A program made the position numbers and the translations under genes. Under the pieces are notes generated by a model that was not told where the DNA came from, did no database searches, and was given only the letters and a program-made list of their open reading frames with translations. From Candidatus Poribacteria bacterium (GTDB lineage: Bacteria > Poribacteria > WGA-4E > PCPOR2b), in contig CBDBMC010000001.1 in the NCBI GenBank assembly GCA_965207095.1, forward strand, positions 74,357 to 138,356: DNA of 64,000 nucleotides. Reading direction: 5' to 3'. Positions 43,281 to 45,324 of the stretch are shown here, one piece after another; the first letter of the stretch is position 1; the number at the start of each line of letters is the position of its first letter.

Positions 43281-45324
43281 TCAAAGAATGTTCAAAAACA
43301 ACCAAGTTCCAAGCCCAAATAACAATACTCCCGTTCCTAACTTCACCGGCATTAGATGCCGTTGCAGCACACCACCCAGTTGCATCGCAGTTGTTCCCCA
43401 ATACACAAACCCAAATACTACTAGCAGTGGCACGATAAACATCAGATTATACAGAATCAGGTACGCTAAGGCATGACCCCGCATCCCCTCAACGCCCATC
43501 ACAAACGTAATCGTTGGCAGATAGACCTGACCCGTACAGACCAGCTCCAACGCAGAGATCGCAAATCCAATGACCAACGCACCGATAATTACTCCCGATG
43601 TTCGCGTCTGCTCACGGATAACTTTGTGGATGCGCTGCTTCAACGACTTGGGTAACTGCAATGTAATCTCTTTTACCTTTCCCTGCTTTGCTTTATAAGC
43701 ATCGTACAGACTCAAAAATGCCAGCGCAAACGTCCCAATTGCGGCAAGCAGGTAGACACACTTGGCAAGGACCGAAAACTCGTTGAGGAAGGAGAGAAAC
43801 TTGAGCAGCCCCATCCCCAACAGCAGGTACGTTACAAACACGGCGGCGGCGAATGCGCCACCGGCGATGAGCATCTCCTTCCTTCCTCTCCCAACAAGAC
43901 TCATGTAGGAGATGAAGAATACGATCGTGGCGAAGGCACACGGATTGATCCCGTCAAGCAACCCCGCGCCTGCAACAGCTAACGTGCCGAAGGCGTTAAA
44001 GCGTTGAACGATTCCGTCTGACGCTTCCCCAGTCTTGGCTTCCGCTTGGGGCAGACGAGACGCAACCCCTGTCTGCAAGTATTTCTGGATAACCGCTTCC
44101 AGACGTTTTTCATCGACGTCGTCAAGCAGATATTCATCGCCGATGAACACCGCAGGTGTGGTAAGTCGCTTCACTTCGGGAACCTCGTAGAGAGCGCCCA
44201 TCGCTTCAAGCAGTTCTCGGCTCTCTTTTGCATACTTCAGCTCAACGACAATCTGTGGATATTTCGTTTTGAGCCGTTTCAAAATCTCGCTGGCTCTCGC
44301 ACATTTCTGACATCCCCGTTTGTGGAAGTAGGTGATATAGATGGCACGATCATCCGGTGGGCTCCCTTGCTGGTCAAATCCATCCTCCTCGGATAGATTG
44401 TCGTAGAGTGTCAGTAGCATTTCAAGATCAGCGTCGGGAGTAATCCGTTCCGAGACCGAGAGGTGCTGATTCTGTCTTGAAACCACTTGCCTATCGGGGT
44501 CAAGTTCAATCTCCAAAACACCAACCGCTTCACCTTTAGTGAGGTTAGTGACAATCGTTGTACTTCCCACGGCAATCGGAATATCCGAGGCAATTTCCGA
44601 GGATTCATTCTTGGCGAGGATGAGAACGGATAGCCATGGAACTTTTTGAGCGAGTGTACGCGCTTCGTCTTCCTCCCCGTAAAACACCCCTACTACCGCG
44701 TCACTTTTCTCTATGATTTCTTTTGACAAAGCCTCCAGTGCTTCTGTCGGCTTGGATAGAGCCATACTGGGGTTATAGGCGGTAATTTCCGCTTGGTATG
44801 ACGAGGATATTAAGTTAATGACGGCGACTTTTATCTGTGTGGTTGTACTGTGAATGATATAGGGTGCAAATGGACTTGGAGAGGAAACGGAGAGATTGGT
44901 GCAGATAACAGGTAGGTTGGGATGATTCCCGTAAAGAGCAGAGAGGGTGTCTGCGGGGAGGGATAGATCCTGAGGACCAAGACAGAGGGCATCATAATCC
45001 ATCCCGCTCAACGCTTCGAGGGCGATCTGGCAGATAAGTTCATTGTTGGGGTTAGCGGAATCGAGAATGTTGCCTGCGTGCAGGTTTAGGGCATCCAAGT
45101 GTTTGTCACGCAGGGACTCAATTATCGTATGGCGGCGGGCTAGTCCACCAACCTGCTCGGCACCGCAGCCGTGTAGCCCAAGCAACCCTTGTTCCTCCCC
45201 AGAATAGATCAGGGTCAGTGGAGATGGAGAGTCTGCGACGACGTGAGCAGAGGGTAACAAACACCCAAGTACAACGAGGAAACCGATTTGATATAATAGG
45301 TACGGAACGCTACGGTTCATCATA
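43281..45324 (-). CDS. Thiol:disulfide interchange fusion protein: signal peptide, degenerate metallophosphatase/5-prime-nucleotidase-like periplasmic domain, thioredoxin-fold CxxC (GCQKC), DsbD/CcdA transmembrane domain
   Basis: 680 aa from MMNRSVPYLLYQIGFLVVLGCLL; YITYFHKRGCQKCARA; TM region with INPCAF and LVCTGQVY cysteine pair typical of DsbD-beta. Confidence 0.7.

Follow-up and report, generated by a model that had tools for sequence, protein, structure and literature searches.

A putative DsbD-analogous thiol-disulfide relay of permuted domain order in a poribacterial cassette for secreted cysteine-rich proteins

What is the role of a protein that joins a degenerate metallophosphatase-like domain, a CxxC-bearing thioredoxin-fold domain and a membrane core resembling that of DsbD, and that is encoded directly upstream of genes for small proteins with twelve cysteines? 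The question is raised by a gene on the minus strand of a 64,000-nucleotide stretch (the window) of contig CBDBMC010000001.1, from a Candidatus Poribacteria genome assembly (GCA_965207095.1). We favor, with moderate confidence, the answer that the fusion protein is a transmembrane thiol-disulfide relay analogous to DsbD, permuted in domain order and dedicated to a poribacterial sigma-54 cassette for secreted Cys-rich proteins. This reading is based on the anatomy, fold and homology of the protein, on its topology signals and conservation, and on the synteny of its neighborhood and the co-variation of C39 peptidases with GG leaders.

The fusion is a real gene. A mechanically called open reading frame (ORF) on the minus strand spans 43281..45380 and begins with GTG, but the likely start is an ATG at 45323, 8 nt after the sequence AAGGGA. 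Because homologues start there too, the protein is taken to be 680 amino acids (aa) long. The initial annotation, which was made from the sequence alone, had the gene right and its end, 45324, one base out of frame. The three-part anatomy given there proved fully correct in Pfam, NCBIfam and Foldseek comparisons. The features of the fusion are as follows.

43281..45323, minus strand: fusion gene, 680 aa plus stop, encoding a signal peptide, an UshA-like domain, a glutaredoxin-like (Grx-like) domain with CQKC and a CcdA-like core of six transmembrane (TM) helices; identified from the ORF, domain matches, homologues, and a ribosome-binding site (RBS) with ATG
45234..45323, minus strand: signal peptide, about aa 1-30, MMNRSVPYLLYQIGFLVVLGCLLPSAHVVA followed by DS; an N-terminal helix and a low-confidence linker in the structural model
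44388..45233, minus strand: degenerate 5'-nucleotidase/UshA-like metallophosphatase-fold domain, about aa 31-312, with the metal-ligand motifs all lost
44064..44348, minus strand: Grx-like thioredoxin-fold domain, about aa 326-420, with C338-Q-K-C341 at codons 44301-44312 and the cis-Pro motif TTPAVF
43284..44003, minus strand: 6-TM CcdA/DsbD-beta-like core, about aa 441-680, N-out

All of the motifs quoted in the initial annotation are present, namely GCQKC (C338 and C341), GINPCAF (C462), LVCTGQVY (C596) and, in the N-terminal part, LTLIYSGEE...GGLARRHTIIESLR. A search for homologues returned 325 proteins, the top 120 of which are 63-90% identical to the fusion and mostly full length; the nearest relatives, of about 679 aa and 85-90% identity, come from Candidatus Poribacteria genomes. 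All 112 poribacterial homologues examined keep the four relay cysteines, C338, C341, C462 and C596, which are likewise invariant across phyla. Anchoring of the N terminus as a lipoprotein was considered and rejected: the Cys of the LGC sequence in the signal region, C21, occurs in just 58 of the 112, and there is no conserved lipobox.

The membrane core carries C462 in the DGINPCAF sequence of TM1 (codon 43938-43940) and C596 in the ELVCTGQVYLP sequence of TM4 (codon 43536-43538). In an AlphaFold model of the fusion (pLDDT 87, pTM 0.81) the core consists of six long helices, and TM1 is broken exactly at GINPC. Lysine and arginine residues number 15 on loops 1-2, 3-4 and 5-6, on the inside, versus one on loops 2-3 and 4-5, on the outside; together with the signal peptide, this bias predicts an N-out topology that places both soluble domains, including the one with CxxC, outside the cytoplasm. 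The model and the residue counts thus agree on two 3-TM halves with both termini outside, the arrangement that characterizes the DsbD/CcdA superfamily. A local hhalign comparison of a TM profile (87 sequences) with a six-sequence CcdA/DsbD profile gave a probability of 94.5% and an E value of 7.5e-8 over 209 columns and all six helices. The alignment pairs NPC with SPC and CTGQ with PCxGP, with both cysteines in register, which bears out the DsbD-beta hallmarks that had been noticed initially in the C-terminal half. Aligned to E. coli DsbD alone, NPC pairs with TPC (C163) and CTGQ with SPCT (C285), at E 0.0024 and a probability of only 12%. A jackhmmer search begun from DsbD-beta reaches canonical CcdA genes in the loci we fetched, and next the genes for Grx domains joined to six TM helices (Grx-TM genes), and JGI/NCBI records name many of the relatives "cytochrome c biogenesis protein CcdA/glutaredoxin". 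As judged by these alignments, the TM core is homologous to CcdA and DsbD-beta, a relationship that is detectable at the profile-profile level only.

The domain just ahead of the core matches Pfam Glutaredoxin over aa 330-398 with 30.6 bits, above the gathering score of 22.9, in keeping with the thioredoxin-like GCQKC domain of the initial annotation. It has the marks of a thioredoxin fold: helix 1 begins with the CxxC, and there is a cis-Pro loop. The usual glutathione-binding motif of glutaredoxins is GG-x-DD; at that position the Grx domain of the fusion reads LLDDVD.

The N-terminal domain has as its best family match the NCBIfam model of UshA-like (seleno)proteins, NF041198 (aa 25-287, E 5.3e-29). 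The score of 101.2 bits lies under the curated cutoff of 275, and the match covers model positions 13-281 of 519; fused relatives from outside the Poribacteria score 174-207 bits. Weaker NCBIfam matches are to 5'-nucleotidases and SoxB. A Foldseek search with the model of this domain found 3ivd at E 3.5e-21, as well as human CD73, E. coli UshA (2ush) and a T. thermophilus structure (2z1a), with a query-normalised TM-score of about 0.72. The match of the AlphaFold model to solved 5'-nucleotidases confirms the metallophosphatase fold, and the family match agrees with it, as the comparison with the 5'-nucleotidase/calcineurin fold made from the sequence had anticipated. The C-terminal nucleotide-binding domain of 5'-nucleotidases is absent from the fusion, in which the NF041198 match ends at model position 281 of 519 and the Grx domain follows. 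The loss of the His/Asp metal ligands, also noticed initially, extends to all five motifs (DxH is replaced by SGEE, GD by GN, GNHE by GPQD, SHxG by FYGE and GGHxQ by LAKNE), and the replacements are conserved across the 112 poribacterial homologues.

Some residues of this degenerate domain are nonetheless very well conserved. The motif H51-G-C53 keeps its His in 110 and its Cys (codon 45165-45167) in 111 of the 112 homologues, and C141 (codon 44901-44903), which is specific to the poribacterial lineage, is kept in 111. Distant fused relatives retain GD, SHLG and GGHTQ, and have C-x-C or CPxC in the loop before GGLxRRA. In the corresponding loop before GGxARR, Poribacteria read L-H-G-C-G, relatives read C-H-C, CPTC or C-R-C, and standalone UshA-like genes read PCG-TGA. 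A PCGU (Cys-x-Sec) motif at that loop defines the orphan UshA-like selenoproteins (PMC2398784; PMC13188914), and the register of the poribacterial H-G-C against PCGU is uncertain by one residue. By sequence comparison, the N-terminal domain is a descendant of this UshA-like CxU/CxC (seleno)protein lineage. Since H51-G-C53 and C141 are nearly invariant, a redox or metal-binding role is possible. The initial annotation had described a likely non-catalytic binding module; the persistence of these residues suggests that the domain is probably more than a dead binding module.

The neighborhood of the fusion is the next line of evidence. On the minus strand of the window, the fusion is followed by two 12-Cys proteins, a 247-aa TM-anchored protein, an 836-aa C39-DUF1573 protein and a protein with the sulfatase fold of formylglycine-generating enzyme (FGE).

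42697..43161, minus strand: Cys-rich secreted protein A, 154 aa, with a Sec-type signal, a GG-type leader LDMEEMSQIAGAG and a 12-Cys mature part; strong RBS
42159..42617, minus strand: Cys-rich secreted protein B, 152 aa, with a Sec-type signal, the leader LDMEEMSQIAGG and a 12-Cys mature part
41389..42132, minus strand: 247-aa protein with an N-terminal TM anchor, coiled-coil/acidic, of a type that recurs in nearly all cassettes
38809..41319, minus strand: exported protein of 836 aa, in which an N-terminal signal/anchor precedes a domain of unknown kind (about 330 aa), Peptidase_C39 at aa 369-485 and DUF1573/OS_HP2-type Ig-like domain(s) with an SCYC motif
37963..38799, minus strand: FGE-sulfatase-fold exported protein, PF03781 at E 1.1e-53, with EgtB-type matches; the likely start is an internal ATG, for MKKQKN

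The placement of the fusion beside 12-Cys peptide genes in the initial annotation is correct, as both genes directly downstream encode such mature parts. Protein B also has a weak match to the Bacteriocin_IIc leader (aa 39-57), and the 247-aa protein matches no Pfam or NCBIfam family. In the 836-aa protein, Pfam C39 (PF03412) is found at E 1.2e-21, DUF1573 at E 3.4e-20 and NF041425 at E 1.2e-18, and the C39 domain shows ECG and DHFLVV motifs. The protein has neither an ABC permease nor an ATPase, and only the peptidase part of ABC-exporter models matches it (12-138 of 710). By inspection, the FGE-like protein has a single Cys at what we take to be the two-Cys copper site of FGE; with one of the two copper-binding positions filled, a canonical formylglycine-generating enzyme is not supported as the neighbor.

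We surveyed about 33 poribacterial loci with tblastn and ORF searches; the fusions at these loci are 51-87% identical. The FGE-like gene occurs in 29 loci and often follows the fusion immediately. C39-DUF1573 proteins occur in 17 and DUF1573-only proteins in most others, so that about 30 loci have one kind or the other, and a sigma-54 activator lies just upstream of the fusion in 22. Most of the loci encode a small Cys-rich protein (124-182 aa) that has a signal peptide and 8-14 Cys; between loci these proteins are too divergent for BLAST, though their layout is common. Several genomes hold at least two cassettes (L005 with L006, L011 with L015, L012 with L014, and L019 with L022, in our numbering of loci). 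A second paralogue was not found in the window, nor was a PMT_2 glycosyltransferase. The conserved cassette neighborhood indicates that the fusion is not a stray housekeeping DsbD. The co-occurrence with Cys-rich ORFs that the initial annotation would predict is seen in most loci, but these ORFs are not the most constant neighbors, as the FGE-like and the DUF1573 or C39-DUF1573 genes recur more steadily. The direct client of the relay could therefore be the FGE-like or the DUF1573/C39-DUF1573 protein, and the disulfide isomerization proposed at the outset is a role that we infer.

The leader sequences show a pattern of their own. A small ORF with a GG motif (LSxxEMxxIxGG-type) is present in 17 of 17 loci with C39, and the motif is found in none of the seven loci that have Cys-rich ORFs but no C39; one exception is L013, which has the GG motif and no C39 gene within 10 kb. 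Across poribacterial loci the GG leader thus co-varies with the presence of a C39 peptidase. If signal peptidase cut after AEA, the remaining GG leader would be about 20 residues long, a canonical length, and the Sec-type signal ahead of the leader suggests that the leader would be cleaved outside the cytoplasm.

The Grx and TM parts of the fusion belong to a much larger set of proteins. When 1.84 billion cluster representatives were searched with a profile, 8316 proteins matched at E<=0.001 and 1388 at E<=1e-30. What stays constant among them is the Grx+6TM module, whose invariant motifs are CxxC, DGxNPCAF, ExxCTGQxYLP and YNxxFxxPL; it occurs alone (about 360 aa) or preceded by extra thioredoxin or glutaredoxin domains. 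Further N-terminal additions are DUF1573/OS_HP2-type domains, UshA-like domains with or without DUF1573, and HEAT repeats. Among the phyla with the module are Chloroflexota (Anaerolineae), Gemmatimonadota, Latescibacterota, Zixibacteria, Omnitrophota and Atribacterota. On this showing, Grx+6TM is a large uncharacterised family with interchangeable N-terminal modules. The three-part fusion had been called unusual; its architecture stands as described, but it is not unique in its parts, the Grx+6TM module being very common across phyla.

In three Chloroflexota/Anaerolineae loci, standalone UshA-like genes with the motif ...DPCG-TGA-R..GGVARRA (PCGU) lie directly downstream of a Grx-TM gene. These are selenoprotein genes with an in-frame TGA.

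L047, 5866-6711: standalone UshA-like selenoprotein gene, followed by a thioredoxin-like gene and a canonical CcdA gene
L062, about 11750-12544: standalone UshA-like selenoprotein gene
L071, about 11560-12351: standalone UshA-like selenoprotein gene

An UshA-like module that is fused in some lineages and adjacent in others points to a functional partner of the relay. The commonest neighbors in 46 non-poribacterial loci are AhpC-TSA/Redoxin (8) and thioredoxin-like proteins (5), both typical clients of reductive envelope pathways.

We take the fusion to be, most likely, a member of a large and uncharacterised branch of the DsbD/CcdA superfamily. In the relay that we propose, cytoplasmic thioredoxin would reduce the membrane pair C462/C596, which would in turn reduce the periplasmic CQKC (C338/C341) situated directly N-terminal to TM1, and CQKC would hand the electrons to clients. 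The UshA-like domain might dock these clients, for example via the leader, or take part through C53 with H51 and C141. The Cys-rich proteins would be exported by Sec, lose their signal peptide and fold oxidatively, with the relay acting as isomerase or reductase or keeping the Cys-dependent enzymes of the cassette reduced. In cassettes of the C39 type, the periplasmic C39 peptidase would finally cut off the GG leader.

Several observations weigh against this reading. Which way the electrons flow, which proteins are the clients and what the N-terminal domain does are matters that we infer. The Pfam families DsbD (PF02683) and DsbD_2 (PF13386) gave no match at E<=1 to the window protein or 16 relatives, and among these proteins no other Pfam TM family matches the core either; one distant relative (P0366) has a precomputed PF02683 match. 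A search of PDB sequences with a TM-only profile produced just a chance match to MotA (E 0.67), and structure searches retrieved thioredoxins and nonspecific transporters only, with CcdA not among them. TM1 has NPC, and TM4 reads V/A-C-T-G-Q-V-Y-L-P, in which the Pro stands seven residues after the Cys and not before it; TM4 lacks the Pro-Cys of DsbD and CcdA. The first Cys of the CxC/CxU motif of the N-terminal domain is lost in Poribacteria. A canonical CcdA adjoins the Grx-TM gene in several Anaerolineae loci, which makes the two distinct lineages, perhaps not redundant, and Grx-TM might do something other than plain export of reductant. Finally, the best NCBIfam match of the TM part is to the ArsG transporter, at no more than 28.6 bits against a cutoff of 200. 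We treat the ArsG matches as a resemblance at superfamily level. They could also be taken as a sign that the TM domain is an ArsG/LysE-type superfamily permease for a thiophilic small molecule or metal(loid), whose substrate is processed outside by the Grx and UshA-like domains. The weak matches do recur, spanning most of the model in several members with E values down to 8e-7, the core lacks a Pfam DsbD match, and the poribacterial H-x-C could bind metal. However, the scores fall far below the cutoff, and an invariant mid-membrane Cys in each 3-TM half, combined with a CxxC domain in the same chain, is what marks a thiol relay; we regard a permease as very improbable.

If the protein is such a relay, it may nevertheless serve clients other than the peptides, keeping reduced the catalytic Cys of the exported C39 domain, the CxC of DUF1573 and the single Cys in the active-site region of the FGE-like protein. 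DsbD and DsbG offer a parallel in the protection of single cysteines, the FGE-like and DUF1573-containing proteins are more constant neighbors than any one peptide family, and in other phyla Grx-TM carries DUF1573 and UshA-like modules in direct fusion. A periplasmic cysteine protease would also need shielding from oxidation, and the C39 protein has only an N-terminal signal/anchor. Yet the relay is kept in cassettes without C39, and most cassettes of both types have small Cys-rich secreted ORFs, so we hold this version to be rather unlikely. Flow in the opposite direction, with the protein a functional analogue of DsbB/VKOR that takes electrons from the Grx-like domain to form six disulfides per peptide, would supply the oxidant that 12-Cys clients need. 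Pfam and NCBIfam scans of the cassette revealed no DsbA or DsbB homologue, and the co-occurrence of canonical CcdA with Grx-TM in Anaerolineae hints at non-redundant roles. We consider such an oxidase improbable, since no quinone-binding or extra-cysteine features were detected, the AhpC-TSA/Redoxin and thioredoxin-like neighbors outside the Poribacteria are those of a reductive pathway, and the characterised members of the CcdA/DsbD superfamily all export reductant (PMC3322552). That relatives are annotated as the cytochrome c biogenesis protein CcdA might suggest an ordinary housekeeping orthologue of DsbD/CcdA, serving cytochrome c maturation for example, with coincidental neighbors. This is hardly credible, since poribacterial genomes hold several paralogues, every one with a cassette to itself, synteny with sigma-54 control is conserved, and cytochrome-maturation genes are lacking nearby; the same paralogy and synteny contradict the possibility, allowed for in the initial annotation, of a common housekeeping DsbD found without such neighbors.

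The dedicated relay that we favor also appears to be part of a regulon. A promoter and enhancer module of about 150 nt is present in three near-identical copies, one of them ahead of the fusion.

45491..45505, minus strand: sigma-54 type -24/-12 promoter TGGCATGTTAATTGC, found by pattern match; the ATG of the fusion follows after about 170 nt
45491-45640, 47243-47392 and 36122-36271, minus strand: the three copies of the promoter/enhancer module, aligned and near-identical
46014..47257, minus strand: upstream sigma-54 unit, with its promoter at 47243-47257, a 269-aa TM-anchored protein at 46406-47215 and a 126-aa secreted protein at 46014-46394
48630..49601, plus strand: sigma-54 activator, with an AAA+ Sigma54_activat domain (PF00158, E 5.6e-62) and HTH_8, and no receiver domain

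In each module a TTGCTAAGCAACAGTTGCTAA-type repeat lies upstream, accompanied by a conserved GATGCCCACTGGGTTTGGGCG hairpin and a -24/-12 element; the mean column identity is 82%, and each module ends in TGGCATG-NN-AATTGC (at 45491-45505, 47243-47257 and 36122-36136). The three look like one regulon under a common enhancer-binding protein, for which the activator at 48630-49601 is the candidate. The upstream sigma-54 unit is probably in the same regulon; its 269-aa and 126-aa proteins match no Pfam or NCBIfam family.

The surroundings of the module at 36122-36271 have the look of a segmental duplication. The C-terminal 50 or so aa of an ORF at 36773-37228 (…QLFDQYGT.EGLRRFREMDPEAARQFERERRKPPVHSEPNDEPPTR) repeat the end of a 340-aa ORF at 34513-35535, and an ORF at 36354-36596 repeats the N terminus of a succinyl-CoA-ligase-like gene (34203-34361). 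Comparison of 34203-34760 with 36354-37228 suggests that a promoter-plus-gene unit may have been inserted by duplication.

Other features of the cassettes were observed in passing. Four minus-strand proteins in the window resemble paralogues (34513-35535, 37141-37923, 41389-42132 and 46406-47215), each with a single TM helix at the N terminus and acidic, low-complexity or coiled-coil sequence after it; they have no family matches, and the type, at about 225-245 aa, appears in almost every poribacterial cassette. In many cassettes a PMT_2 gene (GT-C, protein-mannosyltransferase-like) comes after the C39/DUF1573 gene (L005 17453-19258, L019 16516-18444, and similarly in L011, L015 and L029). Proteins of about 190 aa that are not Cys-rich (L005 12166-12735 and L006 12129-12710) begin with MFKF(G/R)(L/F)(S/N)Q(K/R)L, as do the Cys-rich proteins of the window (MLKFGLSQKL and MFNFGLSQKL), and this common N terminus hints at a specialised signal sequence for cassette cargo. 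The flanks at 29881-34230 and 49646-50512 encode ordinary metabolism and transport (TonB-dependent receptor-like, succinyl-CoA-ligase-like alpha and beta, and HpcH/HpaI aldolase/citrate-lyase-like proteins) and mark the limits of the cassette.

To our knowledge, transmembrane reductant relays have been described in three classes only, DsbD, CcdA and ScsB. We tentatively raise the possibility that Grx-6TM is a fourth, undescribed class of the DsbD superfamily, of alpha'-gamma'-beta order, whose swappable alpha' modules come from two orphan families of selenoproteins, UshA-like (CxU) and DUF1573/OS_HP2, and that in Poribacteria it is the core of a new extracytoplasmic pathway for Cys-rich protein maturation comprising Sec export, leader-guided folding or modification, and removal of the leader by a periplasmic C39 peptidase. 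If this were true, the UshA-like and DUF1573/OS_HP2 families would for the first time be placed in a functional context, as the terminal acceptors to which a transmembrane relay passes electrons, and the fused or adjacent UshA-like PCGU selenoproteins would offer a testable function for a family described in 2008 and an orphan ever since. A very large extra branch, permuted and with swappable client modules, would broaden the picture of cell-envelope redox chemistry, notably in Chloroflexota, Poribacteria and little-studied phyla. In the Poribacteria, which live as symbionts of sponges, the relay marks a multi-copy cassette under sigma-54 regulation, the secreted Cys-rich proteins of which are candidate host- or competitor-directed factors. 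The peptides appear to follow an unusual processing route that combines a Sec signal and a GG leader with a C39 protease in the periplasm. A literature search on Poribacteria Cys-rich/C39 systems, CcdA-glutaredoxin fusions and ArsG returned nothing specific, though it brought up the ScsB paper and surveys of selenoproteomes. The components are of known kinds; in the literature searched we met no description of the permuted architecture, of an alpha-like module derived from a metallophosphatase, of a link to UshA-like selenoproteins or of the cassette of the Poribacteria.

Comparison with characterised systems puts these differences in relief. E. coli DsbD holds an essential Cys in TM1 (C163) and another in TM4 (C285), with which those of the fusion align. 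The two proteins also have in common a CxxC domain of thioredoxin fold in the periplasm, an N-terminal module there that for the fusion is proposed to contact clients, and an N-out orientation. Unlike DsbD, which is ordered alpha-beta-gamma, the fusion is ordered alpha'-gamma'-beta and has no C-terminal soluble domain; its core has six TM helices where DsbD has eight, with the TM motifs NPC and CTGQ; its gamma-like domain is glutaredoxin-like (CQKC) and lies ahead of TM1; and its alpha-like module has a metallophosphatase fold in place of an Ig-like one and lacks a CxxC-type pair. With CcdA it shares six TM helices, the Cys in TM1 and TM4, and homology at the profile-profile level, whereas CcdA is without fused soluble domains, has the canonical motifs SPCVLPL and TPCIGP, and is encoded by a separate gene beside Grx-TM in Anaerolineae. 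ScsB represents a third class of DsbD proteins, in which replacement of the alpha domain changes the substrate set and the components are either fused or encoded by separate adjacent genes (PMC3322552). The swappable N-terminal modules of the Grx+6TM family recall this exchange of alpha domains between ScsB and DsbD, although ScsB has the alpha-beta-gamma order, eight TM helices and an alpha domain unrelated to that of the fusion.

The cassette itself resembles the GG systems of bacteriocins and NHLP-type peptides in its C39 domain, its LSxxELxxIxGG-type leader and the co-variation of the two. It differs from them in that its C39 domain, fused to DUF1573, belongs to an exported protein that has no ABC transporter part, and in that the substrates have a Sec-type signal before the GG leader. 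The UshA-like (seleno)proteins of NF041198, a COG0737-type orphan selenoprotein family with a PCGU/CxU motif (PMC2398784; PMC13188914), differ from the N-terminal domain of the fusion, which scores 101 bits against a cutoff of 275, matches the N-terminal half of the model only, has H-G-C in place of CxU/CxC, and has lost the GD, SHLG and GGHTQ kept in relatives. The two are nonetheless alike in fold and in a conserved Cys in the same loop just before GGxARR, and the standalone PCG-TGA genes adjoin Grx-TM genes.

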